Assembly (NCBI GenBank): GCA_016124675.1
Contig: WGNG01000010.1
Span: 12,634 to 76,633, forward strand
From: Alphaproteobacteria bacterium
GTDB taxonomy: Bacteria; Pseudomonadota; Alphaproteobacteria; Caulobacterales; Maricaulaceae
Length of the DNA stretch: 64,000 nucleotides
Reading direction: 5' to 3'
This document shows, piece after piece, positions 3,429 through 15,679 of this stretch. The translations under genes were made by a program, and so were the position numbers. How positions within the stretch are numbered: position 1 is the stretch's first letter; every line of letters starts with the position of its first letter. The notes under the pieces are model-generated. The model did not search any database and had not been told where the DNA came from. It was given only the letters and a program-made list of their open reading frames with translations.

Positions 3429-4634
3429 TCAGGCGCGAGGCAGGCGCAAATCGACCTGCAGACCGCGCGATTCAAGGCCCGGGGTTTGAAAGGTCAAGGT
3501 ACCGCCATGGCTCGCGACGGCCTGCTGGACCAGGCTGAGCCCGATCCCCGCCCCGCCTGGCTTGGTTGAGAAGAACGGCTTGAGCAAAGTCTCCGGCGCC
3601 AGGCCGTCGAGCCCGATCCCATTGTCCGCCACCGTGATGACGACCGCGTCCGGCCCGCAAGCCTGGGCAGTCAGGCTCACACGGGCCGGCATGTGCGGGA
3701 CGGGCGAGTCGATCGCCGCCTCGGCGGCGTTGGCGAGCAGGTTCAACAACACCTGGCTCATCAGGTCCGCATCAATCCGAACCTCGATATCCGGCGCAGG
3801 CCCGGTCTCCAGCGTAACCGCCCGTCCGTCCCAGCGCTCGCGAAACAAGCGCCCGGCGTCCTCCAGCACGAGACCGAGGGTGACAGGCCGCAGGTCCGGC
3901 TCGGGAAGGCGCGCCAGCTGGCGATAGCCGTCAACAAAGCGCAGCAGACCGCGCGCGCGCCGCTCCAGCGTCATCAGCGCGCGCGCTGCGTCCTGGTGCG
4001 CGCCATCGGCCAGCAGCGCCGCCGATGTCTGCGCCAGCGACGTCACGGGCGTCAGCGAGTTCATGATTTCATGGGAAAGCACGTCCAGGGTTTGCTTCAG
4101 GATCGCGGTTTCGCGCGCGTTCAGCTCGGCCTCGATATCCGCCAAGGAGAGCAGGCGGGCCAGGCCGTCCGGCCCGATGATTTCGGCGCTCGTCAGGGCG
4201 TAAGCGCGCGCTGCCCCCTCCCCCAGCCTGACAATGCGGGGCTCGCCGGCGCGCAGCCCCGCCAGTGCTTCGTGCAAGGCCTGCGGCGGCGGGGCGAGGC
4301 GCCCATCCGTGGCGAACAGCGTGCGCGCCGCGCGGTTAACCGCCACCAACCCGCCTTGAGTGGTTTCCATAAGCAGCGGCGCCGGCGCGTGATCGAGCAA
4401 ATGGGCAAGACGCCTGTCCTGCATCGGGTCAACGCCTTGCGCCGGACCTGGACGCATGGCGCCTGCGGGCGTGCGCAGGCGAGCGAGCGTGGGAGCCGCA
4501 GCGACAAACGCCAGCAGCGCTGCTGCCACAGCGCTCGCCCACAGGCCCCGCTCCCAGGCGGCCCAGAAGCCCGCCCCGAAACCGAACGTCAGAGCGAAGC
4601 CCAGCCCCGCCAGAACAAATCGCCTAAAGCCCAT
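3429..4634 (-). CDS. sensor histidine kinase (NtrB/AtoS-like, two N-terminal TM segments)
   Basis: H-box LSHEIMNSLTPV, N-box LLNLLANAAEA, G-boxes DNGIGL and GGAGIGLSLV. Overlaps the stop of the regulator gene by 11 nt. Confidence 0.85.
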   Translation of the reverse strand: MGFRRFVLAGLGFALTFGFGAGFWAAWERGLWASAVAAALLAFVAAAPTLARLRTPAGAMRPGPAQGVDPMQDRRLAHLLDHAPAPLLMETTQGGLVAVNRAARTLFATDGRLAPPPQALHEALAGLRAGEPRIVRLGEGAARAYALTSAEIIGPDGLARLLSLADIEAELNARETAILKQTLDVLSHEIMNSLTPVTSLAQTSAALLADGAHQDAARALMTLERRARGLLRFVDGYRQLARLPEPDLRPVTLGLVLEDAGRLFRERWDGRAVTLETGPAPDIEVRIDADLMSQVLLNLLANAAEAAIDSPVPHMPARVSLTAQACGPDAVVITVADNGIGLDGLAPETLLKPFFSTKPGGAGIGLSLVQQAVASHGGTLTFQTPGLESRGLQVDLRLPRA

Positions 4635-5898
4635 GCTTGTCCATCCGCCGGTAAAGCGCGGCGCGGGTTATGCCCAGATCGCGCGCCGCATGACTCACAT
4701 TATGCCGGTGGCGCGCGAGGGCTGCCTCGATCAGCCGCTTCTCGGCGCGATCCAGATTGAGATCGCCGCCTTCGGGCGCACCTTTGGCGTGCTCAGCCGG
4801 GCCGCGATGGAAGTCCTGCGGCCGGTAATGATCGCCGTCGCAGACAAGGACAGCCTGCGCCGCGGCGGCGCGCAGTTCACGCACATTCCCCGGCCAGGGC
4901 TGCGCAGCCAGGAAGGCTTCGGCGCTGGCGCCTATCGGCCTTGCTGCGCCCCCCGTCTGACGTTCTTCAAGACGGACAAAGTGCTCTGCCAGAGGGATGA
5001 TATCGCCCCGCCGCGCGCGCAGGGGAGCAATCATGATCCGCGCTGCGCCCAGCGTGTGACGCAAATCCTCGCGCCACCCGTCCAGGCTGGCCGGCTCGGG
5101 AGCGCCGGCCAGCAAACGCACAGGCGGCGCCTCGCGCGCGAGCAGGTCCGCCAGCCGGTCCTGGACAGGCCGCGCCAGGTGCTCGGCAGCCTTGAGATAA
5201 AGCGTGCCGCCTGCAGCCCTGACCACGGCGCCGTCTGCCGGGCCGAACAGGCGCGAGTCCTGAGCCGGACCTGACAAGCCGGAGAGGTCAATCGAAACGA
5301 AGGCCTCGGCGCGCCGGACGGATGCGGCGTGAACGGCGCGCGCGGCGAGCATCTTGCCTGCTCCGGGCTCGCCGCACAGAAGGGCGGGCGCGTCTGTCTG
5401 CGCAAGGCGCTCAACCTGGGCCCGCAGCCGCCCTATCGCCGGTGACCGGCCCAGCAGGACGGGCAGCCCCGCAGCAGGCTTTGGCCCCGCCCGGCGCTGC
5501 CGGTGCAGCGCCACACTGTCAGTCACCACCGAGACCAGGCGGTCATTCTTCCAGGGTTTCATAATGAAGTCGTTCGCACCGGCGCGCATCGCCGCCACGG
5601 CGATGTTGACGCCGCTGTGGCCGGTGAGAACAGCCACCACCGCATCCGGATCCATGCTTAGTATACGGCCAAGGCAGGCCAGGCCTTCATCACCGCTGCG
5701 GGCGCCAGGACTGAAATTGAGATCCAGCAGGATTGCGTCCGGCGGGGCGCTGGCCATGACGCTCCATGCCTCATCGGGTCCTGGCGCCGTGGCGACGTCA
5801 AACCCGTGCCGGCGCAAGAGCAGCGCCCCGGCTTCCAGGACGTCCTGATCATCATCGATGAACAGGACGCGGGCGGCGGTCTGATCAGCAGGGTGCAT
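4624..5898 (-). CDS. NtrC-family response regulator (REC + degenerate AAA+ + Fis-type HTH)
   Basis: Receiver (VLFIDDDQDV...ILLDLNF...KPW), Walker A GEPGAGKMLAARAVH, WPGNVRELRAAA, C-terminal HTH NVSHAARDLGITRAALYRRMDKHGL. No GAFTGA loop, and the Walker B position reads GGTLYLKAAE instead of GGTLFLDEI. Confidence 0.85.
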   Translation of the reverse strand: MHPADQTAARVLFIDDDQDVLEAGALLLRRHGFDVATAPGPDEAWSVMASAPPDAILLDLNFSPGARSGDEGLACLGRILSMDPDAVVAVLTGHSGVNIAVAAMRAGANDFIMKPWKNDRLVSVVTDSVALHRQRRAGPKPAAGLPVLLGRSPAIGRLRAQVERLAQTDAPALLCGEPGAGKMLAARAVHAASVRRAEAFVSIDLSGLSGPAQDSRLFGPADGAVVRAAGGTLYLKAAEHLARPVQDRLADLLAREAPPVRLLAGAPEPASLDGWREDLRHTLGAARIMIAPLRARRGDIIPLAEHFVRLEERQTGGAARPIGASAEAFLAAQPWPGNVRELRAAAAQAVLVCDGDHYRPQDFHRGPAEHAKGAPEGGDLNLDRAEKRLIEAALARHRHNVSHAARDLGITRAALYRRMDKHGL

Positions 5899-6008: not shown

Positions 6009-7307
6009 GTGATGATGAAGACCGTGTCCAGTCCGCGCGCCGGCCCGCCCGGCATGGATCGCCCGTTGCGCCGCCCCCGCTTCAGGGCAGGCCGTCTCCT
6101 TGTCGCCGCTGGCGCGGTGGCGGCTGTTGCAGCGCTGGCGGCGCTTGTCTGGCGCACATTGCCGGGCGGCGCAGATCTGGTGGTGCGCAGCGCCGACATC
6201 GTGTTCGCCGAGGTCGTGGAAGGCCCTTTTGAGGACGCCCTGCCGGCCCGAGGGGTCGTGGCGCCCCTGCGCACGGTTCAGGTCGCCTCTATCGAGGGCG
6301 GACAGGTTCAGGCCGTTCTGGTGGAGGACGGCGCCCGCGTGGAAGCCGGTCAGCCGCTGGCCGAGCTGTCGAACCCGCGCCTGCGCATGGAGGTCGTCGC
6401 AAGCGAGGCCCAGATCGCATCCCAGCTTGGCAATGCGCGCGCGCAGGCCCTGCAGATTGCGCGCAACCGTCTTGAGCGTGAGCGCGAGATCGGCGATGCC
6501 GGGTTCAATCTGCAGACGGCGCGGCGCGAGCTGGGCATACGCAGCCGCCTGCACGCCAGCGGGGTGGTCTCCGACGCCGGGCTGGCGGATGCGCAAAGCC
6601 AGGTGGATTACTTCCAGTCGCGCCTGGACATGCTCAATGAAGCCCGGCGCGCTGAAGACCGGCTCGCTTCAGCGCAGTCAGCCGAAATCGCCGAGTCCAT
6701 CGACCGGTTGCAAAGCAATCTTGACGGCGTGCGCGCCAGTCTCGATGCGCTGGTCATTCACGCTCCGGCGTCGGGGCGGCTGACGGCGTTCGACCTTGTG
6801 CCCGGTCAGCCGCTGACGGCGGGCGCGATTGTCGGGCAGGTGGACTCCGAGGACGCATTCAAGCTCGTCGCCGAGATCGACGAGTTCTATCTGGCGCGCA
6901 TCGAGCCTGGCCAATCGGCCCAGGTGCGCATTGGCGCAGACGACTGGCCGCTCGGCGTGGCCCGGGTGCTGCCCCAGGTGACCGCGGGCCGGTTCAGAGC
7001 CGAGCTTGTATTCGCCGGCGCGACGCCGCCCGGCCTGCGGCGTGGCCAGACGCTGGATGTCCGCCTGATGCTGGGGGACACACGTGAAGCGCTGTTTCTG
7101 CCAACCGGGCCGTGGCTCAGCTCTGCAGGCGGCACCCGCGCCTATGTTCTGGACGCGCAGGGGCGCACCGCAACGCTGCGCGACATCCGCACCGGCCGGC
7201 GCAGCCCTACTCACGTCGAAATTCTCGACGGCGTCGCGCCGGGCGAACGGGTGGTCACCTCGTCCTATGACCGTTTCAACGCCCGGCCCCGCCTGGTTTT
7301 GCGCTGA
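6009..7307 (+). CDS. HlyD-family periplasmic adaptor (membrane fusion) protein of a MacAB-type efflux system
   Basis: 432-aa ORF with an N-terminal TM anchor, then lipoyl/coiled-coil/beta-barrel type sequence (VEAGQPLAELSNPRL..., ...HAPASGRLTAFDLVPGQPL...). GTG at 6009, ATG at 6012. Confidence 0.85.
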   Translation: MMMKTVSSPRAGPPGMDRPLRRPRFRAGRLLVAAGAVAAVAALAALVWRTLPGGADLVVRSADIVFAEVVEGPFEDALPARGVVAPLRTVQVASIEGGQVQAVLVEDGARVEAGQPLAELSNPRLRMEVVASEAQIASQLGNARAQALQIARNRLEREREIGDAGFNLQTARRELGIRSRLHASGVVSDAGLADAQSQVDYFQSRLDMLNEARRAEDRLASAQSAEIAESIDRLQSNLDGVRASLDALVIHAPASGRLTAFDLVPGQPLTAGAIVGQVDSEDAFKLVAEIDEFYLARIEPGQSAQVRIGADDWPLGVARVLPQVTAGRFRAELVFAGATPPGLRRGQTLDVRLMLGDTREALFLPTGPWLSSAGGTRAYVLDAQGRTATLRDIRTGRRSPTHVEILDGVAPGERVVTSSYDRFNARPRLVLR

Positions 7308-7319
7308 AGGAGACACCCC

Positions 7320-8003
7320 ATGATCGCCTTGTCCGGCATTGAACGCCTGTATCGAACAGAAGAGGTGGAGACGGCAGCGCTGGGCCAGATCGCCCTGGAG
7401 ATCAGCCAGGGAGAGTTCGTGGCGGTCACCGGCCCGTCGGGCTGCGGGAAATCCACCTTGCTCAATGTGATCGGGATGATCGATCGCCCCACGGCCGGGC
7501 GCTACATGTTTTACGATCAAGACGTCTGCGCAGCCAGCGAGAGGACCTTGGCCGGACTGCGCGCGCGGCATCTCGGCTTCATTTTCCAGACCTTCAATCT
7601 GATCGACGAGCTGACGATCACGGAGAATGTCGAGCTGGGTCTGGTTTACCGGCGCACCCTGTCCGGGACCGAGCGGCGCATCCGTGTCGCCGAGGCGATG
7701 GACCGGGTCGGGATCGCGCATCGCGCCCGGCATTTCCCGCACCAGTTGTCAGGCGGCCAGCAGCAGCGCGCCGCCATCGCGCGGGCCATCGTTGGACATC
7801 CCGAGCTCATCCTGGCTGACGAACCGACCGGCAATCTCGACAGCCGCAATGGCTCACAGGTGATGGACATTCTTCAGGGCCTGAACGCGCAGGGCGCCAC
7901 CCTCGTGATGGTCACCCACTCGCCGGCTCATGCCGACATGGCCGGGCGGGTGGTGGAGATGCTGGACGGGCGCATCGTCGCCGATGTCCGGCGGCGCGCC
8001 TGA
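7320..8003 (+). CDS. ABC transporter ATP-binding protein (MacB/LolD type)
   Basis: Walker [13 protein letters not shown], signature [14 protein letters not shown], Walker [13 protein letters not shown]-loop VTHS. GGAGA RBS. Confidence 0.92.
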
Positions 8004-8014
8004 GGGAGAACGCC

Positions 8015-10456
8015 ATGCCAGGCCACCACATGCGTACACTTTACCGCACGCTCAACCGCCACCGGCTCTATACAGCCCTCAACATCGCCGGTCTGGCGGT
8101 CGGGATCGCCGTGTTCCTGACCCTGATGCTGACGGTTCGCTTTGAGACCGGCTTCAACCGCTGGATACCGGACGCGGACAATATTCACCGGCTGAACCTG
8201 ACGCTGGCATTTCCCGGGCGTCCGTCCCAGTTCACCAGCAATGTCCAGGCGGTGGCCATGCCAGCGCTGGCGGCAGACTATCCACAGATCGAGGCGTACA
8301 CGCGCCTGATGGGCGCCAGCGTGCGCATCCGGCTGGCTGACCGGACCGTGATGCAGCGTGCAACGCGCGTCGACCCTGACTTCTTTGAGGTGTTCAACCT
8401 GCCTGTCGTGGCGGGAGACGCCAGCACCGCCCTCAGCGATCCAGCCTCGGTCGTCCTGACCGAGACGCTGGCGGGGACGTTCTTCCCGAACGGCCAGGCG
8501 TTGGGCGAAACCCTCACACTGATCGCCGGCGGGCGCGAGAGCGTCTACACGGTCACCGCCGTGATCCGTGATCTGCCACCCCAGACCAGCTTGCGGATCG
8601 AGATGCTGATCCCGCTGAACCGGGCCGATTTTCCACTCGAAGAACAGGCCCGCCTGTTCGATGTCTGGAACAATTTCTCCACTACCGCCTATGCGCGCAT
8701 CAGCGAGCCCGGCGCGGCCGAGGCGATCAACGCTGACATGGAGAACTTCGTCATCCGGCGGGTCAATCCGGATAATCTGCCTGCCCCGCTGGTCGAGGTG
8801 TTGCGATATGATTTGATGGCCCTGCCGCACATTCATTTCGCTGACGCGCGCGGTCATGACGCCGCCGGCGCGGCGGACCCGGCCGTGGTGCGGCTGCTCG
8901 CGCTTGTGGCTGTCATGACCCTGGCCCTGGCGGCGATCAACTACATCAACCTCGCCACCGCGCGGTCGAGCCTCAGGGCGCGTGAGGTTGCCATTCGCAA
9001 GACGCTGGGCGCCACGCGCGGCGCGCTGATCATCCAGTTCCTGTCCGAAGCGATGCTGCTGACCTTGCTGGCGGCGCTGTTCGGTTTGGCCCTCACGGAG
9101 CTGGCCCTGCCGGTGATCAACGCCTATGGCGGAACACAGCTTGCCCTGACCTATGTCGGCCCAGACGGCGTGCTGCCTGTCTTGCTGGGCGCCGTGGTGG
9201 TGGTGGGGCTGGGCGCCGGCGCCTGGCCGGCGCTGGTGATCTCCCGGTTCGCGCCCGCGGCGGTTCTGGCCTCTGCGCGCTCCCCGGGCGGCGGACGCGC
9301 CGGGGCGCGGGTGCGCAGCGCGCTTGTGCTGGCGCAGTTCACCATCGCCCTGATCTTCGCCATGTGCGCGGCGGTGATGCTGGCCCAGAACCATCATATG
9401 CGCCACGCCGACCTTGGATTTGAGCGCGATGGCCTGCTGATCCTTGAGCGCTTTTCCTGGCCCGATCTGGACGGACGCCGCGCCAGCCTTCTTGATCAGT
9501 TCCGCAACACGCCAGGGGTCATCGCCGCCACGGTGTCCGACCGGTCACCCGCCACGGGTTCCATAACCAGCGCCAATGCGGCGCGCCTGGGCCATTCTGG
9601 CGCCGAACCCAGCCTCGTCATGGAGATTGTCGGCGAGGACTATTTCGCCGCCTACGGCCTGCGCCTGGCGGCGGGGCGGTTTTTCGACGCGGACAACCGG
9701 CTTGATGACGCCGCCAGCGAGGTCGACGGCCGCAATGTCATGCTGAACGAGACGGCCGTGCGCACGTTGGGCTTTCCCGATCCGCAAGCGGCGATCGGCG
9801 AACCGGTCTATCTGTTCGGCAACCGGGTGACGGTGACGGGCGTGGTGCGCGACGCGCGCTTCCGGTCGCCGCGTGAAGTCATTCCGCCGGTGCTCTACCG
9901 CTATTCCAGCGGCGATATTGAAGGCGGCGTCGCCGCAGTGCGCCATGCCGGCGACCCGGCCGGAATCCGCGCCCGGCTGGAAGCGCTCTGGCAGGAGGCT
10001 GCGCCTGTTCTGCCCTTTGAAGCCGAAACGGCCGATCAGCTGCTTCATGCCTACTATGCGCCGGAGGATCATCGCAGCCGACTGTTCAGCCTGGGGGCTA
10101 GTGTGGCGATGCTCATCGGCGCCCTCGGCCTGTACGGCATGGCCGCCTTTGTGACGGCGCGCCGCATCCGCGAGATCGGCATCCGCAAGACACTCGGCGC
10201 TTCCACCGGTGATGCGCTGCGGCTGCTGATCGGTCAGTTCCTGAGACCGGTCGTGGCGGCCTCTGTGATCGCAGCCCCGGCCGCATTCTGGATCATGACG
10301 GTGTGGCTGGATCGGTTCGATGACCGCGTCAGCCTGTCAGTGTTGCACTTCACGGTTCCGGTTCTGGGCGCGCTCGTCATCGCCGTGCTGACCGTGCTCG
10401 GACACGCCGTCGCGGCGGCGCGCGCCGAGCCGGCAAGGGCCCTGAGAGCGAACTGA
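8015..10456 (+). CDS. ABC transporter permease with duplicated FtsX/MacB-type domains (813 aa)
   Basis: N-terminal RTLNRHRLYTALNIAGLAVGIAVF motif. Two copies of the FtsX-type 4-TM module (REVAIRKTLGATRG... and REIGIRKTLGASTGD...), each preceded by a large periplasmic domain. Confidence 0.85.
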   Translation: MPGHHMRTLYRTLNRHRLYTALNIAGLAVGIAVFLTLMLTVRFETGFNRWIPDADNIHRLNLTLAFPGRPSQFTSNVQAVAMPALAADYPQIEAYTRLMGASVRIRLADRTVMQRATRVDPDFFEVFNLPVVAGDASTALSDPASVVLTETLAGTFFPNGQALGETLTLIAGGRESVYTVTAVIRDLPPQTSLRIEMLIPLNRADFPLEEQARLFDVWNNFSTTAYARISEPGAAEAINADMENFVIRRVNPDNLPAPLVEVLRYDLMALPHIHFADARGHDAAGAADPAVVRLLALVAVMTLALAAINYINLATARSSLRAREVAIRKTLGATRGALIIQFLSEAMLLTLLAALFGLALTELALPVINAYGGTQLALTYVGPDGVLPVLLGAVVVVGLGAGAWPALVISRFAPAAVLASARSPGGGRAGARVRSALVLAQFTIALIFAMCAAVMLAQNHHMRHADLGFERDGLLILERFSWPDLDGRRASLLDQFRNTPGVIAATVSDRSPATGSITSANAARLGHSGAEPSLVMEIVGEDYFAAYGLRLAAGRFFDADNRLDDAASEVDGRNVMLNETAVRTLGFPDPQAAIGEPVYLFGNRVTVTGVVRDARFRSPREVIPPVLYRYSSGDIEGGVAAVRHAGDPAGIRARLEALWQEAAPVLPFEAETADQLLHAYYAPEDHRSRLFSLGASVAMLIGALGLYGMAAFVTARRIREIGIRKTLGASTGDALRLLIGQFLRPVVAASVIAAPAAFWIMTVWLDRFDDRVSLSVLHFTVPVLGALVIAVLTVLGHAVAAARAEPARALRAN

Positions 10457-10489
10457 ACTGGGCAGGCGCACGAAAGAGCGACACCGCAT

Positions 10490-10519
10490 TTGACTCTAAA
10501 GTTGTATTTAATGTACACT
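10490..10519 (+). promoter_or_regulatory. sigma-70-like promoter candidate TTGACT-N18-TACACT ahead of the poly-Gln peptide gene
   Basis: TTGACT at 10490-10495 and TACACT at 10514-10519, inside the most A/T-rich stretch of this region (tttgactctaaagttgtatttaatgtacactt), about 45 nt upstream of AGGAGA (10560-10565). Confidence 0.4.
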
Positions 10520-10571
10520 TCAGATTGCCGTTCGGCGTTCAGGCTGAGCCGCAAACCAAAAGGAGATGGCT

Positions 10572-10859
10572 ATGAAACTCATGAACTGCGCATCGCTGAT
10601 CGCTCTCGCGGCCGGCGGCCTTTCGATGACCGCGCCCGCTTCTGCGTCACACGTGGAGATGGCAATCAGCCCGGCCTCCCTCTCTGTGAGCCATGATGTT
10701 CTGAAATCCACCGACCTCATCGGTGACGACAGCTTCCTGGCGCAGAGCCAGCAGCAACAGCAGCAGCAGCAACAACAACAGCAGCAGCGGCAGCGCCACC
10801 TTGGCCTGGTCTCGCTGGGCGTTGTGTACGGCATGCCGGCGGACGGGTTCAGCGTGTAA
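10572..10859 (+). CDS. small secreted peptide with Sec-type signal peptide and 13-residue poly-Gln tract (95 aa)
   Basis: AGGAGA RBS 6 nt before ATG 10572. MKLMNCASLIALAAGGLSMTAPASA/SH looks like an n-h-c signal with an AxA site. Mature part: ...DDSFLAQSQ(13)RQRHLGLVSLGVVYGMPADGFSV. Promoter-like site upstream, hairpin downstream. Confidence 0.6.
   Translation: MKLMNCASLIALAAGGLSMTAPASASHVEMAISPASLSVSHDVLKSTDLIGDDSFLAQSQQQQQQQQQQQQQRQRHLGLVSLGVVYGMPADGFSV
10749..10787 (+). repeat. in-frame (CAG/CAA)13 trinucleotide tract encoding Gln13
   Basis: Read directly: cagcagcaacagcagcagcagcaacaacaacagcagcag, in the frame of the 10572 ORF. The other two frames and the reverse strand give the poly-C and poly-L artefact ORFs in the track. 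Confidence 0.95.
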
Positions 10860-10865
10860 CCCCGT

Positions 10866-10894
10866 GGCTGCGGCGCCCGCGCGGCGCCGCAGCC
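10866..10894 (+). terminator. perfect 12-bp GC hairpin between the peptide gene and the HExxH gene (attenuator or processing site; no clear U-tract)
   Basis: ggctgcggcgcc-cgcgc-ggcgccgcagcc, exact reverse complements. Starts 7 nt after the TAA at 10857-10859 and ends 10 nt before the AGGAGA RBS of the next gene. Confidence 0.5.
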
Positions 10895-10915
10895 GCAATC
10901 TTGCAGGAGACCATC

Positions 10916-12037
10916 TTGCGCCAGATCATCTACGCACTGTCAGGAGCTGAAAATTCGCCGCCTGTGCTGGACCGGCAGCTTGAACGCTTCGTTCAGCGCC
11001 TGCGCGACGATGTCGAGGACATTATCTGGGACGCGAGTTTTCGCGGCCATCGCCAGGGGCCGGAACTCTACACCCTGTTCCAGGAGCTCGGCGACGCGGA
11101 CAAGATCCGGCTGTTTCTCTCGCCGCAGGGATTTGAAGCGATTTATGCTGCGGCCCGGCGCTGCTGCGAGGACAATGTCGCCGCGCTGATCGAGACGGCG
11201 CGCAGCTTCACCCGTACCGCGCAGGACGAAATCTGGCCGTGCGATACGCCGGTCGACCCCGGATGCCTGCCCAGCCGGCTGAGGCTGGGTGACACCATCA
11301 TTGTGGACATCGGCACTGAGCTGTGCCGCCGGGTCGATCTGACGAGCCCTATCCTGTTCATGCCCTATGAAGCGCTCACCTGGGCGGAGACCGAGACGGT
11401 CCGGCGCAAGCTGCACGACGCCCTCAGCGAAATTGACGCCTTCGCCCCATCGCTGGCGCGCATGATCCGCAATTACACAAGGACGATTTATGTCCGCAAG
11501 ATTGGCGACCTGCCTCCTTCTTCGGAACAGGTGGACACCGAGCTCGGGGCGATCCGGCTGCGCAATATCCATGGCGACCTGTATCACCATGACCAGATTG
11601 TGGATGACCTGATTCATGAGAGCACCCATAACCTTCTGGGGACGTACGAGTATCTGAACTTTCCCTTCATTCCGGTTGGATTTCGGCCCTCTCCCAATGT
11701 GCGGCCGGTCTCACCCTGGTCGCTGCGCCCGATCCAGGTGCTGCCCTTCATCCATGCCGCGTTTGTCTATTTCGCCATGCTGACCTTCGCCCAGCGGCGC
11801 CTGGACCGCGGCATTGACGATCCGGCCCTGCGCCAGCGTTTCGTCGCCCGGCGCAACCGCTATGCCTCAGGCTTCCTCATGCCAGGTCAGCTGAGTGAGT
11901 TCGCCTCCTCGCTCACCGATATTGATCCACGCGTGGCGCGCGCGATGGACTGGATGCAACAGGCGGTGCGCGCCAGCACGTACGGCGCGATGAATACGCC
12001 GGGGCGCCCCGGCGCCGACGTCAGAAGCGTGGCCTGA
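10916..12037 (+). CDS. HExxH-motif protein (TIGR04267-like peptide-modification enzyme / aKG-HExxH hydroxylase-like, or a zinc peptidase)
   Basis: ORF 10901..12037. TTG at 10916 sits 5 nt after AGGAGA. No signal peptide. DDLIHESTHNLLGTYEYL carries HExxH at 11615-11629, about two-thirds along a ~373-aa protein, matching my recollection of HExxH peptide-modification proteins (L-[IV]-H-E-x-x-H-x-x-L). Confidence 0.65.
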   Translation: MRQIIYALSGAENSPPVLDRQLERFVQRLRDDVEDIIWDASFRGHRQGPELYTLFQELGDADKIRLFLSPQGFEAIYAAARRCCEDNVAALIETARSFTRTAQDEIWPCDTPVDPGCLPSRLRLGDTIIVDIGTELCRRVDLTSPILFMPYEALTWAETETVRRKLHDALSEIDAFAPSLARMIRNYTRTIYVRKIGDLPPSSEQVDTELGAIRLRNIHGDLYHHDQIVDDLIHESTHNLLGTYEYLNFPFIPVGFRPSPNVRPVSPWSLRPIQVLPFIHAAFVYFAMLTFAQRRLDRGIDDPALRQRFVARRNRYASGFLMPGQLSEFASSLTDIDPRVARAMDWMQQAVRASTYGAMNTPGRPGADVRSVA

Positions 12038-12052
12038 AGGAAAGGAACCAAG

Positions 12053-12481
12053 ATGCGCCTTCGAGCGGCACACATATTCGCCTGTATCGGCTTCAGCCTC
12101 CTTGTCTCAGCATCCTTGTCAGGTGAACCGGTCATGGCTCAACCGCAATCCCAGTCTCACAGCACCGGCGTGTTCTCCGCCAGCTCCAGTGCCGGAGAGT
12201 TGTGGATGGTCAGTCAGCCGGGCGGCGTGCGGATCGAACGCCTGCGCCTCGAGACCATGGAAACCCCGCTTCAGGCGGGCGATGTGGCGACACGGGTGGA
12301 CGGCCATGCCGTTGTGACACCCGAAGACATTCTCGACCATATCCGCCAGCGGCCTCGGCTCGGCGTCCTGTCGCTGTCGGTTCGCCGTGACGGCCGCGAC
12401 ATCCGCCTGACAATAGACGCGGACCTGTTTCGCGCCTTCATGCCGCCGCAGCCCCCGGCCCCGCCAACACCACCAGCCTGA
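12053..12481 (+). CDS. secreted PDZ-domain protein with Pro-rich C-terminal tail
   Basis: AAGGAAAGGA RBS. Signal peptide MRLRAAHIFACIGFSLLVSASLSGEPVMA. PDZ-like core GGVRIERLRLETMETPLQAGDVATRVDGHAVVTPEDILDHIRQRPRLGVLSLSVRRDGRDIRLTID. Tail PPQPPAPPTPPA. Confidence 0.7.
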   Translation: MRLRAAHIFACIGFSLLVSASLSGEPVMAQPQSQSHSTGVFSASSSAGELWMVSQPGGVRIERLRLETMETPLQAGDVATRVDGHAVVTPEDILDHIRQRPRLGVLSLSVRRDGRDIRLTIDADLFRAFMPPQPPAPPTPPA

Positions 12482-12493
12482 GCGGAGCGCATC

Positions 12494-13369
12494 ATGACGA
12501 GACTGTCCGGCCGGGAAGAGCCCATGCACAATCTGATTGTCTGCGATGACTTCGTGGATGATCCGCTGGCGCAAGCTGCCGGGGCGCTTGCAGGCAGCAA
12601 CGCGCCTCGACCGGTCAAACTGTCAGAGTTTCTGCAGCTTCAGGGTTTTGGCTTTGACGCCATGACCGGCCAGATGCAGCGCCAGCATCGCCCGCCCGGC
12701 GATTGGCAGGCGCGCATTCTCGACCGGGTGATCGAGGTGTCGCGCAAGACCGTCGAGATGTTTGATGGCGGCGAGGGCGTGCTCGAGCGCGGCCAGATCT
12801 ATGCCTGTTACGAGGACGCGCTGCGTGAGCACGCCGCCGGTTCAGGCGCGGCCAGACAATACTCCACTGTCGGCCGGCTGCTGCCGCTGCCCACGCAATG
12901 GCATCTGATCCAACAGGCCGGGCTGGGCGTCAGCGTCCCCGATTATCTTTACGGCTACGGACCCACGCCGGTGGACGCCAGCAGCTTCACGCGGCCAGTC
13001 TTCAAATCGCCGTTTGACCTCTATCACTGGCGCCCCAACGAGGCTGAGCCGGGCGATATCTGGGACCAGTTCGTCGTCGAGCGCCCGCAAGGCGCAGCCG
13101 TCCTGGTGTATTTCCTCGGGCAGCGCTACTGCGTGTCCGCGCTGCGCGGCGGCGAGGAGGCGGTCGCCCGGGACCAGGCTGCGACGCTGATCGCGCTGTC
13201 ACAGCGCGTGGCGCATACGTTCGGCGCAGAGCTCGGGGAAGTGCTGTGGCATGTCTCGGGCGACGAGATCGTATTCGCCGCCTTCTCCCACTTCCTGATC
13301 GGCGCCGCCCGCACCGACCAGTTCGCCGCCCGCGCCCGGGATTATCTGAGCGAGTATTTCACCGGCTGA
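12494..13369 (+). CDS. hypothetical protein, family not recognised (possible degenerate ATP-grasp-like C-terminal half)
   Basis: 291-aa ORF with GGAG 6 nt upstream and a 12-nt gap to the PDZ gene. No signal peptide or TM segment. See findings for the tentative fold argument. Confidence 0.6.
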   Translation: MTRLSGREEPMHNLIVCDDFVDDPLAQAAGALAGSNAPRPVKLSEFLQLQGFGFDAMTGQMQRQHRPPGDWQARILDRVIEVSRKTVEMFDGGEGVLERGQIYACYEDALREHAAGSGAARQYSTVGRLLPLPTQWHLIQQAGLGVSVPDYLYGYGPTPVDASSFTRPVFKSPFDLYHWRPNEAEPGDIWDQFVVERPQGAAVLVYFLGQRYCVSALRGGEEAVARDQAATLIALSQRVAHTFGAELGEVLWHVSGDEIVFAAFSHFLIGAARTDQFAARARDYLSEYFTG

Positions 13370-13375
13370 GGGCCG

Positions 13376-13397
13376 GGCGCCATTTGGGCCTGGCGCC
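13376..13397 (+). terminator. weak stem-loop after the operon (7-bp stem, no U-tract)
   Basis: ggcgcca-tttgggcc-tggcgcc, starting 7 nt after the TGA at 13367-13369. Confidence 0.2.
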
Positions 13398-13517
13398 ATG
13401 GCCGGAGCGCAATGCTACCGTGCATACGCTCGACCAACGTCTCGCCGAGTCAGGCCCAGCACAGGGCGTGCCCGTGCTGGTGCTGGCGTGATCAGGCGAG
13501 CGGGGCCTGGCTCCCCC

Positions 13518-15092
13518 CTACTCCCACTCGATCGTCCCCGGCGGCTTGCTGGTCACGTCGTAGACCACCCGGTTCACGCCGCGCACTTCGTTGATGAGGC
13601 GGGTTGCCGTGCGGCCGAGGAAGTCGTGGTCGAAGGGAAAATAGTCGGCGGTCATGCCGTCGGTGGAGGTCACCGCGCGCAAGGCCAGCACATTGTCATA
13701 GGTGCGCGCATCGCCCATCACACCCACGGTCTGGACGGGCAGGAGTACGGCGAAGGCCTGCCAGATCGAGTCGTAGAGCCCCGCCTTGCGGATCTCCTCG
13801 ATATAGATGGCGTCGGCCTTGCGCAGGATGTCGGCCTTGTCCTTGGAGACCGCGCCGGGGATGCGGATGGCCAGGCCCGGCCCCGGGAAAGGGTGGCGCC
13901 CGATAAAGCTTTCGGGCAGGCCGAGCTCGCGGCCCAGCGCCCTCACCTCGTCCTTGAAGAGTTCGCGCAAGGGCTCGACCAGCTTCATGTTCATGCGCTC
14001 GGGCAGGCCGCCCACATTGTGGTGGGACTTGATGGTGACGGACGGGCCGCCATCAAACGACACGCTCTCGATCACATCGGGATAGAGCGTGCCCTGGGCC
14101 AGGAAGTCCGCGCCCCCGACAGACTTGGCGTGCTCTTCGAACACGTCGATGAACAGCTTGCCGATGGTCTTGCGCTTGGTTTCGGGATCGCTGACCCGCG
14201 CCAGCGCGGAGAGGAAGCGCTCCTCCTCGTCGGCGGCGACCAGCGGGATGTTGTAGTGCTCGCGAAACAGGGTGACGACCTGATCGGCCTCGCCCGCGCG
14301 CATCAGGCCGGTGTCCACAAACACACAGGTGAGCTGAGACCCGATGGCCTCGTGGATCAGTACGGCGGCGACCGAACTGTCCACCCCGCCCGATAGCCCG
14401 CAGATCACCTTTCCCGAGCCGACCTGGGCGCGGATCTTGGCGATGGCCTCGTCCTTGAACGCGGCCATGGTCCAGTCGCCTTTCATCCCCGCAATGCGGT
14501 GGGTGAAATTGCGCAGGATCAGCGCGCCGCGCGGCGTGTTGGCCACTTCCGGGTGGAATTGCACGCCGTAGAAGCGCCGCGCCTCGTCGGCGATGGCGGC
14601 GAACGGCGCGTGGGTGGTGGCGGCGATGGGGTGGAAGCCTTGCGGGATCGCATTGACGCGGTCGCCATGGCTCATCCACACGCGCTCCAGATGTCCGGCG
14701 CCGCCCAGGCCCTCGAACAGCGGGCTCTCGGCGGTGATCTCGATATCGGCGCGGCCGAACTCGCGCTCGTCGGCGGCCTCCACGCTGCCGCCCAGCTGCG
14801 CGCACATGGTCTGCTCGCCATAGCAAATGCCCAGCACCGGCACGCCCAGCTCGAACACGCCCTGCGCAGCGCGCGGCGTGCCCTCGCCATGCACGCTGGC
14901 CGGTCCGCCCGACAGGATGATGGCCCTGGGCCCGTAGGCGCGCAGGAAGGCGTCATCCACACGGTTGAACGGATGCACCTCGCAATACACCCCGCTCTCG
15001 CGCAGGCGCCGGGCGATAAGCTGGGTCACCTGGCTGCCGAAATCGATGATGAGGGCGCGTTCGTGGGCGTCGGAGGCGTTGATCTGTGTCAT
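13518..15092 (-). CDS. guaA: GMP synthase (glutamine-hydrolysing)
   Basis: 524 aa. GATase N-terminus ([31 protein letters not shown]), ATP-PPase SGGVDSSV, canonical C-terminus KPPGTIEWE. Confidence 0.97.
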
Positions 15093-15152: not shown

Positions 15153-15422
15153 TCAGGCCGCCTGCCCCGCAGGCTTGAGGCGGCCTTGCGCCTCCATGTC
15201 GCGGTGCAGCGCCCAGGGCGCCAGATCAAACCCGTTCGGCCAGGTCGGTGCGCCGTCCTCAAGGAACACGCGCGCGAAATACGCCGGATCGCGCAAAGGC
15301 AGGACCATCGCGCCGGGCCGGGCAATCAATTCGGCCAGATCAAGCTCGCCCGCCTGACCGTCGGAAAAAGTCAGGTGAAGCGCCGCCTGGCCAATGGGCT
15401 TGATGTGAATGATCTTGATCAA
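15153..15422 (-). CDS. DUF2442 domain protein
   Basis: 89 aa: IKIIHIKPIGQAALHLTFSDGQAGELDLAELI...FLEDGAPTWPNGFDLAPWALH fits the DUF2442 pattern. TTG start overlaps the upstream stop (TTGA at 15419-15422). Confidence 0.8.
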   Translation of the reverse strand: MIKIIHIKPIGQAALHLTFSDGQAGELDLAELIARPGAMVLPLRDPAYFARVFLEDGAPTWPNGFDLAPWALHRDMEAQGRLKPAGQAA

Positions 15423-15679
15423 TCTAAACCTTCAATCCGCTCCAGTGGCTCCAGCCGTTCGGCGCGCCGCCAGTTGTCAATTATAGCATCACGTCGCAGC
15501 TCGATCCAATCATCGACAAGTCTGCGGGCGCGGACCGGCAAACTGCCTGCAACCAGCGAACCGTCAGAAATCGCGATCAGCGCCTCATGCCCCTGATAGA
15601 CGACATGAATGTGGGGCGGTGGGTGGTCTCCGAAATACATTCGGATCGTGATGCCGAAGAAGACGGAGATGATCGGCAT
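15419..15679 (-). CDS. DUF4160 domain protein
   Basis: 86 aa: MPIISVFFGITIRMYFGDHPPPHIHVVYQGHEALIAI is the hallmark DUF4160 N-terminus. Confidence 0.85.
   Translation of the reverse strand: MPIISVFFGITIRMYFGDHPPPHIHVVYQGHEALIAISDGSLVAGSLPVRARRLVDDWIELRRDAIIDNWRRAERLEPLERIEGLD

Follow-up and report, generated by a model that had tools for sequence, protein, structure and literature searches.

Gene organization of the locus

We analyzed a 64,000-nucleotide (nt) stretch of DNA from an Alphaproteobacteria bacterium (Caulobacterales, Maricaulaceae; GenBank assembly GCA_016124675.1, contig WGNG01000010.1, positions 12,634 to 76,633 of the forward strand), here called the window, in whose own numbering all positions are given. 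It carries seven co-directional genes that form a candidate system for making, modifying and exporting a small peptide with a run of glutamines. Four of them encode a predicted precursor peptide, a protein with an HExxH motif, a PDZ protein and a protein of 291 amino acids (aa), and they are preceded by three genes for an export pump (Table 1). A preliminary description of this DNA had listed the promoter, the AGGAGA element, the open reading frames (ORFs), the Gln13 run, the hairpin and the HExxH motif, and each of these was found where it had been placed. Re-reading gave the same intergenic gaps of 15 nt (HExxH to PDZ gene) and 12 nt (PDZ to 291-aa gene). The TTGACT-N18-TACACT element is the single sigma-70-like match in 10300-13700, versus 0.4 expected. 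Codon usage had been described as less GC3-biased (GC content at third codon positions) than in the housekeeping flanks; this is correct, but the difference is modest (0.72-0.80 for the four genes from the precursor to the 291-aa gene versus 0.89 for guaA and 0.85 for rsmB).

Table 1. Features of the module in the window and in one locus (L021) of the sister clade
Locus	Feature	Position	Strand	Basis
Window	HlyD-family periplasmic adaptor (membrane fusion protein, MFP) gene	6009..7307	+	Pfam HlyD_3 and HlyD_D23
Window	ABC transporter ATPase gene	7320..8003	+	Pfam ABC_tran, E 2e-31
Window	MacB-type permease gene, 813 aa	8015..10456	+	Pfam MacB_PCD and FtsX, each twice
Window	Sigma-70-like promoter TTGACT-N18-TACACT in A/T-rich gap	10490..10519	+	consensus match only
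Window	Shine-Dalgarno AGGAGA, 5 nt 5' of precursor ATG	10561..10566	+	sequence reading
Window	Predicted precursor peptide gene, 95 aa	10572..10859	+	16-ortholog alignments
Window	Precursor, signal-peptide-like section	10572-10646
Window	Precursor, spacer	10647-10748
Window	Precursor, Q13 run	10749-10787
Window	Precursor, C-terminal G-F-S-V	10845-10856
Window	GC-rich stem-loop, 5 nt past precursor stop codon	10864..10896	+	folding energy
Window	Predicted alpha-ketoglutarate (aKG)/Fe(II)-type HExxH oxygenase gene, 373 aa, TTG start	10916..12037	+	TIGR04267, fold, motif
Window	HESTH motif	11615-11629	+
Window	Conserved downstream His280	11753-11755	+
Window	Predicted exported stand-alone PDZ protein gene, 142 aa	12053..12481	+	ortholog Pfam matches
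Window	Predicted degenerate ATP-grasp-fold protein gene, 291 aa	12494..13369	+	AlphaFold2 (AF2) and Foldseek
L021	Precursor gene	7009-7314
L021	HExxH gene	7425-8732
L021	ATP-grasp-like gene	8720-9574
L021	Methyltransferase gene	9564-10337
L021	FtsX genes	10348-12899

Distribution of the module in two tiers

Searching for homologs of the HExxH protein gave 52 proteins, among them an identical one, annotated as hypothetical, from an Alphaproteobacteria metagenome-assembled genome (MAG). A pattern scan over one genome per species (185,579 species) detected four loci, so the system is rare; a scan of metagenomes detected 34. Hidden Markov models (HMMs) of the four proteins were run over all ORFs of these loci, and two tiers were defined from the results. 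Tier 1 consists of the window and about 15 loci in three phyla with the gene order precursor, HExxH, PDZ, 291-aa protein, seen in Alphaproteobacteria, Lysobacter (L. enzymogenes), Novosphingobium (N. beihaiensis), Cystobacter (C. fuscus), Myxococcus and metagenomes. The four genes, grouped by the preliminary description as one set, are syntenic across phyla. The gene order, the poly-Gln run, the GFxV end and the stem-loop recur in all Tier-1 loci examined, which confirmed that these features are not due to chance. One complete Tier-1 module (L005) lies on a 5.4-kb AT-rich contig (JAGHSJ010000444.1) binned to a Firmicute, the Candidatus Kurthia equi MAG; the contig may be mis-binned, because the signal-peptide and periplasmic logic of the module fits a diderm better.

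Tier 2 is a sister clade of about 25 loci (L017-L040, L042, and L043), including Frateuria sp. Soil773, whose HExxH proteins are 30-36% identical to that of the window. Here the HExxH gene is followed directly, and often with overlap (13 nt in L021), by the homolog of the 291-aa gene, and there is no PDZ gene. Tier-2 precursors have a conserved signal-like N-terminus and a C-terminal [R/K/E/S]-F-[D/N/I]-V; in place of poly-Gln their cores are mostly His/Asp-rich, e.g. DGHHHSDSFGSHHHH, DHDHDNHDHE, and HDDDDTLTEHHH, and the Frateuria precursor has only the short segment GDGHWHYDP. Most Tier-2 loci whose sequence extends far enough downstream also have a Methyltransf_24 gene; none was found in L034, L036, L037, L040, and L043.

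The predicted precursor peptide

The 95-aa ORF had been described as carrying a Sec-like signal peptide and a Gln13 run, and we agree on both. By our rule-based check the N-terminus has MK followed by 12 hydrophobic core residues (Kyte-Doolittle 2.0) and, at residues 23-25, A-S-A, with the same layout in the orthologs, and the predicted cleavage site is ASA/SH. The ATG at 10572 was taken as the start because the N-termini of the homologs (MK.xNCA) agree with it. In alignments of 16 orthologs M1, a run of at least 7 Gln, G92, and F93 are invariant and K2, N5, and V95 are near-invariant, and all Tier-1 precursors share an MK.xNCA...AxA signal-like N-terminus, a run of Q6-Q20 and a C-terminal G-F-x-[V/I/M]. 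The Gln run and GFxV are all that the alignment keeps; the conserved Thr/Ser/Lys-Asp/Glu cross-link pattern of graspetides is absent. The precursor matched no Pfam or NCBIfam family. Of the 43 related loci searched, 38 have a short upstream ORF with a C-terminal aromatic-x-hydrophobic end; for most of the other five the contig or the gene call is truncated.

Two further readings of the peptide were not retained. A lipobox at the conserved N-C-A (residues 5-7) was rejected, the Cys preceding the hydrophobic core and being absent in Lysobacter and Myxococcus, and an oxidative C-terminal cut at the Gly of GFxV, by analogy to the ARMD tail removed by PflC (see below), was not adopted, since the sister clade has R/K/E/S at this position. 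The Q13 run is encoded by mixed CAG and CAA codons, and ORFs opposite to it that encode poly-Cys and poly-Leu were dismissed as mirror artefacts. The length of the run differs between near-identical loci (Q10 in L009:841-1143 versus Q6 in L010:657-947), which together with the Q6-Q20 range across orthologs suggests that the repeat slips under a selection that acts on the presence of a run and not on its exact length. L048, L031, and L039 carry the precursor gene in tandem copies. Locus L048 (625-2570 and 7723-8767) has three near-identical 98-aa poly-Gln precursors in tandem, and LuxR-type and LuxI-type (autoinducer synthase) genes directly 5' of its pump genes, which hint at quorum-sensing control in that organism. 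Another ORF containing a Q11 run was noticed 3' of the ATP-grasp-like gene of L007 (Myxococcus qinghaiensis; ~10700-11000, +); its N-terminus is different and the GFxV end is missing.

The HExxH protein as a predicted member of a divergent branch of aKG-dependent oxygenases

The HExxH oxygenases that depend on aKG have been recognized only recently, and few of their substrates are known. The window protein matched the NCBIfam model TIGR04267 (aKG-HExxH-type peptide beta-hydroxylase) with E 5e-8 and 33.1 bits, short of the curated cutoff of 40 bits. Six relatives scored 34-45 bits, two of them above the cutoff, and the characterized PflC scored 98.5 bits; by these scores the HExxH family of this module appears as a divergent branch that straddles the TIGR04267 cutoff. 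Neither Pfam nor a PDB sequence search gave any match. A BLASTP comparison with PflC, whose sequence was taken from the supplement of PMC12636437, aligned 72 residues of the HExxH...PWS...H-A-x-x-V-Y region at 31% identity (E 2e-5). The TTG at 10916 was used as the start because it fits the N-termini of the homologs, and the protein has no signal peptide by the rule-based check.

The AF2 model of the protein has a predicted local distance difference test (pLDDT) score of 92. In a Foldseek search of the PDB its only significant neighbors were 8s5f, ChlBHExxH (E 1e-9, template modelling (TM) score 0.62-0.69), deposited as "a novel alpha-ketoglutarate dependent oxygenase", and SjiH (E 9e-8). Zincin proteases were not significant in this search (astacin, selecase and all protease hits, E > 1). 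H234, E235, H238, R263, and H280 are invariant across 39 homologs. The TIGR04267-type assignment made in the preliminary description is thus supported, and the housekeeping peptidase that it had named as the opposing outcome did not appear among the significant fold neighbors, which are the aKG-HExxH oxygenase ChlBHExxH and its relative SjiH. We concluded from the HMM match, the predicted fold and the invariant H-E-x-x-H...R...H residues that the protein is a predicted aKG/Fe(II) HExxH oxygenase.

Its best-supported predicted reaction is beta-hydroxylation of the Gln run. Two aKG-HExxH enzymes of Pseudomonas, PflC and PosC, act on a row of adjacent Gln, which they beta-hydroxylate, and also take off a C-terminal ARMD by oxidation (PMC12636437, a 2025 preprint), which makes the idea of a poly-Gln substrate much stronger. 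The known substrates of the family are His, Asp, Phe, Gln, and Pro (PMC13060819). We infer Gln-run hydroxylation here because PflC and PosC act on consecutive Gln and because the substrates of the family cover both types of core, Gln in Tier 1 and His/Asp in Tier 2.

The 291-aa protein has a predicted ATP-grasp fold

The 291-aa protein could not be assigned in the preliminary description; the fold search now assigns it to ATP-grasp. Searched as a single sequence against Pfam and NCBIfam it gave no informative match, none of 28 family members matched an ATP-grasp model in Pfam, phmmer and profile searches of the PDB returned no ATP-grasp homolog, and hhalign against E. coli DdlB and RimK gave probabilities below 1%. 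The AF2 model (pLDDT 92.9) has an ATP-grasp fold, and the top Foldseek matches are the RiPP (peptide that is ribosomally synthesized and modified after translation) macrocyclases PsnB, MdnC, AMdnB, CdnC, and PruB (E 2e-8 to 4e-6, probability 1.0, TM 0.47-0.58), followed by ITPK1, Ddl/VanA, LysX, and RimK.

A profile search of 1.84 billion representative proteins found 236 clusters (50% identity) of this family, nearly all of 270-300 aa. Two members are natural fusions (P0157, 711 aa; P0212, 724 aa) with a full HExxH module at the N-terminus and the ATP-grasp-like part at the C-terminus, which argues, in Rosetta-stone fashion, that the two proteins act together. Among the 44 related loci scanned, 41 have the ATP-grasp-like gene 3' of the HExxH gene, and the contigs of the other three (L015, L033, and L039) end too soon; we take the protein to be an obligate partner of the HExxH enzyme. 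In L044 a 282-aa gene matches the ATP-grasp-like position and was outside the family-model run.

To map the active site, the hallmark residues of DdlB (K97, K144, E180, K215, R255, D257, E270, and N272) were confirmed in the E. coli sequence, and those of RimK were checked likewise; the mapping onto the 291-aa family was done manually at the level of motifs, guided by predicted secondary structure, and is not a structural superposition. By this mapping [N/D]77-R78 stands at the ATP-grasp D-K position and is near-invariant, and E249 stands at the first Mg-binding acid (96% conserved). K171, at the V-V-K-P (ATP) lysine, is Lys in 60% of 99 members and S, T, G or A in about 40%, and the E-x-N Mg site is replaced by A/G/M-F-S (81% Ser). 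The lysine-to-acid spacing is 78 residues versus 107-113 in DdlB/RimK, the lid/phosphate-loop region being about 30 residues shorter. The invariant residues of the family are mostly aromatic or proline. The protein is most likely a degenerate ATP-grasp that would hold the precursor for the oxygenase and perform no ligation; we favor this model-based assignment because the hallmark residues are largely replaced and the invariant ones are mostly aromatic or proline. The rule-based check found no signal peptide. Most homologs begin at the position of Met 11 of the ORF (a column at least 90% conserved), and the true start may be ATG 12524 (281 aa); a purine-rich stretch lies 5' of both candidate starts, 12494 and 12524.

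The PDZ protein

A signal-peptide PDZ protein had been proposed for the 142-aa ORF. This holds at the level of the family: 13 of 14 orthologs match PDZ_6 and PDZ_2 (best E 3e-6), and every ortholog starts with a hydrophobic stretch (signal or anchor) and carries an invariant PPxPPxPP...PP tail at its C-terminus. The window protein itself is sub-threshold: its PDZ_2 match in Pfam (E 0.026) reaches 15 bits where the cutoff is 27 bits, and its NCBIfam matches, in the PDZ regions of HtrA and MamE, are weak, the pattern being HtrA-type. PDZ domains classically bind free hydrophobic carboxy-termini such as F-x-V, and from these sequences we infer that the PDZ protein would bind the GFxV end of the exported peptide.

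The stem-loop behind the precursor gene

The preliminary description had reported a perfect 12-bp GC hairpin after the precursor gene. A hairpin is present there, and its stem is 14 bp with one G-U pair and a 5-nt loop (-41.3 kcal/mol, z = -3.3, no U-tract). A strong stem-loop of unrelated sequence occupies the same site in 18 of the 19 loci folded, from both tiers (the exception is L032), and several of these have T-tracts. No Rfam family was found in 10300-13600, so the hairpin belongs to none of the known riboswitch or attenuator families. A canonical intrinsic terminator was rejected, as the plus-strand terminator scan gave none and the U-tract is missing. In RiPP operons a stem-loop behind the precursor gene is the usual means of making more precursor than enzyme transcript, and the one found here is probably a partial terminator or a transcript stabilizer.

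The export pump is part of the module

The FtsX permease had been treated as the boundary of the module, and this turned out to be wrong. In L048 orthologous MFP, ABC, and FtsX genes stand in the same order as in the window, followed by the three precursors, HExxH, PDZ, and ATP-grasp-like genes; the HlyD-family adaptor ortholog is at the same position (phmmer E 5e-84). A permease ortholog is found within the module in L047 (E 1e-156), flanked by the PDZ and ATP-grasp-like genes, and 5' of the module in L048 and L013. ABC ATPase orthologs adjoin the module in L002, L013, and L048. FtsX permeases are also present in L002, L007, L013, L016, and, 3' of the module, in nearly all Tier-2 loci with enough flanking sequence. 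The HlyD, ABC, and FtsX genes therefore belong to the module, which is a seven-gene unit of 6009-13369. Pfam shows the permease of the window to be a fused double MacB_PCD/FtsX unit without an ATPase domain of its own. MacB-type pumps take up periplasmic substrates, including the Sec-exported enterotoxin STII, and such uptake fits a peptide delivered by Sec. In the Frateuria locus L043 an OEP gene was noted about 4 kb 3' of the FtsX genes.

Proposed pathway and alternative explanations

We propose that the seven-gene unit makes, modifies, and expels a ribosomal Gln-run peptide, a reading that we hold to be on balance somewhat probable. The precursor would be transcribed from its own promoter, and the stem-loop would let only part of the transcripts pass on to the enzyme genes. 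In the cytoplasm the HExxH Fe(II)/aKG oxygenase, in complex with the ATP-grasp-fold holder, would beta-hydroxylate residues of the Gln run, as judged by homology and the PflC/PosC precedent. The modified peptide would exit through Sec, with its signal peptide cut after A-S-A; the periplasmic PDZ protein would bind the free G-F-x-V carboxy-terminus; and the HlyD/ABC/MacB-type pump, on account of its conserved linkage, would expel the peptide across the outer membrane. The rule-based topology check gave signal-like N-termini for the precursor and the PDZ protein and none for the two enzymes. A peptide-maturation module had been inferred in the preliminary description, and the synteny, the TIGR04267 match, and the aKG-HExxH fold lend support to it. 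The His/Asp-rich Tier-2 cores and the TonB-dependent receptor genes beside some modules are hints that the product may bind metal.

Several points weigh against this proposal. The chemistry is predicted from sequences and models. The window HExxH protein is under the TIGR04267 cutoff and only about 31% identical to PflC over 72 residues, and substrate recognition must differ from that of PflA and PosA, because those peptides have an NHLP leader and an ARMD tail and no signal peptide. The inactivity of the ATP-grasp-like protein was read from a manual motif alignment, and its near-invariant [N/D]77-R78 and E249 could support nucleotide chemistry. The FxV end cannot serve the PDZ protein alone, because Tier 2 keeps F-x-V without a PDZ gene. 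The pump is nearby in only about half of the Tier-1 loci, and no outer-membrane channel (TolC/OEP) gene was found among the immediate neighbors in the window, the only region in which it was sought.

The main rival that we considered is that the ATP-grasp-fold protein is instead active, as a ligase that joins a carboxylate (C-terminal or Asp/Glu) to the beta-hydroxyls in a new graspetide-like lactone, or, in the manner of the ATP-grasp inositol-phosphate kinases, as a kinase that phosphorylates these hydroxyls. A hydroxylase followed by a hydroxyl-using enzyme would be chemically logical, the C-terminal motif is invariant, the nearest folds are RiPP macrolactone/lactam ligases and then ITPK1 kinases, and [N/D]77-R78 and E249 are near-invariant at the D-K and first Mg-acid positions. 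Against this stand the change of E-x-N to A/G-F-S, the replacement of the ATP lysine in about 40% of members, the loss of about 30 residues from the lid/phosphate loop, the lack of any ATP-grasp HMM or PDB sequence match, and precursors without a graspetide-type pattern of Asp/Glu and Ser/Thr/Lys, and we regard an active enzyme as rather unlikely.

That the HExxH protein is a zinc metallopeptidase trimming the leader or the GFxV tail, and not an oxygenase, seems to us highly improbable: zincins classically carry HExxH, PflC itself cleaves truncated substrates hydrolytically (PMC12636437) and the module encodes no dedicated protease, but the significant folds are only ChlBHExxH and SjiH, with astacin and selecase at E > 1, TIGR04267 matches throughout the family, and the protein has no signal peptide, whereas the predicted processing of the peptide is periplasmic. 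The small ORF may also not be the substrate of the enzymes at all, being rather an unmodified, periplasmic or secreted Gln-rich adhesive, aggregation-prone, or PDZ-bound signaling protein, with the enzyme pair acting on another target. The link between enzyme and peptide is indirect, the peptide is routed to a compartment other than that of the enzymes, and its free F-x-V carboxy-terminus is typical of PDZ ligands in general. Yet the small ORF strictly adjoins the HExxH/ATP-grasp-like pair in both clades, its core switches between Gln and His/Asp, both of them known aKG-HExxH substrates (PMC13060819), the tandem precursors and the hairpin behind the precursor are typical of RiPP operons, and the bufferins are a precedent for modification before Sec export (PMC11626156); we consider a non-substrate role improbable. 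A more far-reaching combination, in which we put little confidence, would make the module an undescribed RiPP class, with an ATP-grasp fold recruited to an aKG-HExxH oxygenase, either as a holder or as an esterifying or phosphorylating enzyme that makes a new cross-link, and with export by Sec and then by the MacB-type pump. The product would be a ribosomal metallophore with a poly-beta-hydroxy-Gln or a hydroxylated His/Asp core, taken up again in some genomes by the adjacent TonB-dependent receptor.

Neighboring genes

Divergent from the pump genes, a sigma-54-dependent response regulator (Response_reg, Sigma54_activat, and HTH_8; 4624-5898, -) is a possible candidate regulator of the seven-gene unit. 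Between guaA and the rsmB-like gene there are two small overlapping ORFs of 86 and 89 aa (15153-15679, -) in a patch of lower GC (~0.62), which may resemble DUF4160/DUF2442-type pairs. Among the other loci, a TonB-dependent receptor-like gene lies directly 3' of the module in L003 (8573-11436) and L044 (10441-12408); in L003 it is followed by a glutaminyl cyclase gene (Glu_cyclase_2, E 4e-94), whose product would yield pyroglutamate provided that the peptide is cleaved directly in front of its Gln run. Both genes were rejected as core parts of the module, the cyclase occurring in one and the receptor in two distinct contexts only. In L047 (4762-5579) genes for a bacterioferritin-associated ferredoxin (Fer2_BFD) and a ferritin lie about 3.5 kb 5' of the module, which may be coincidental but is of interest in view of the possible metal binding.

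Comparison with known systems

The preliminary description held that the gene combination matches no described system, and indeed we found no description of it in the literature searched. The closest relatives in enzyme and substrate are the pfl/pos clusters of Pseudomonas (PMC12636437), in which an aKG-HExxH gene stands beside a precursor of ~90 aa with consecutive Gln near the C-terminus and a short conserved C-terminal motif. These clusters also contain transporter genes, and their enzymes share the HExxH...PWS...H-A-x-x-V-Y region. The relatedness is low (33 bits for the window protein versus 98 bits for PflC on TIGR04267), and the window precursor has a Sec-type signal peptide and GFxV, whereas PflA/PosA have an NHLP leader and ARMD. 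Unlike pfl/pos, the window module (6009-13369) has no GNAT and no MNIO-nitroreductase in Pfam and NCBIfam searches, and it has a degenerate ATP-grasp partner, a PDZ protein, and a MacB-type pump. The best structural match, the triceptide-associated ChlBHExxH (8s5f), likewise modifies a peptide and shares HExxH and the downstream His, but it is only ~17% identical, and there is no radical-SAM gene in the window module. In ChlBH the fusion partner is a radical-SAM cyclophane synthase, and a cyclophane must be installed beforehand (PMC12636437).

The graspetide macrocyclases (MdnC, PsnB, AMdnB, CdnC, and PruB) are the closest folds to the 291-aa protein. They are stand-alone enzymes of ~300 aa that bind the leaders of RiPP precursors directly. 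The 291-aa protein has no detectable sequence similarity to them, has lost E-x-N, keeps the ATP lysine poorly, and has a shorter central region.

The bufferins are RiPP metallophores with a Sec signal that are modified in the cytoplasm by an iron enzyme (MNIO) and a non-catalytic partner and are then routed to Sec (PMC11626156). The module resembles them in having a predicted cytoplasmic iron enzyme with a partner protein, in Sec routing, and in a possible metal role suggested by the His/Asp cores of the sister clade. It differs in that bufferins use MNIO and DUF2063 and convert Cys to thiooxazole, whereas the module has an aKG-HExxH and an ATP-grasp-like protein; the bufferin product also stays periplasmic, and no MacB pump or PDZ protein is described for bufferins. 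Finally, the HlyD-family adaptor, ABC ATPase, and MacB_PCD/FtsX permease in a row are as in MacAB-type (type VII ABC) exporters, but the permease here is a fused double unit of 813 aa without an ATPase domain, and its substrate is a candidate only. By these analogies the system resembles pfl/pos in its enzyme and Gln-run logic and bufferins in its predicted routing.

Implications

What appears new here, on comparison with these systems, is the Sec-signal poly-Gln precursor, the ATP-grasp-fold partner, the PDZ protein, and the MacB-type pump, while the chemistry of the Gln run would be predictable from known kin. The module would extend the aKG-HExxH oxygenases to Sec-routed precursors, which are rare among bacterial RiPPs (PMC11626156), and would add a cryptic ATP-grasp-fold partner family of ~236 clusters that went unrecognized by the profile libraries and PDB sequence searches tried. 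It would also add a PDZ protein with a likely ligand, the free G-F-x-V end, from the same operon, and would give a MacB-type pump a candidate native peptide substrate. The precursor is a natural, conserved bacterial poly-glutamine peptide (Q6-Q20), and its predicted hydroxylation could bear on the solubility of poly-Gln in cells.

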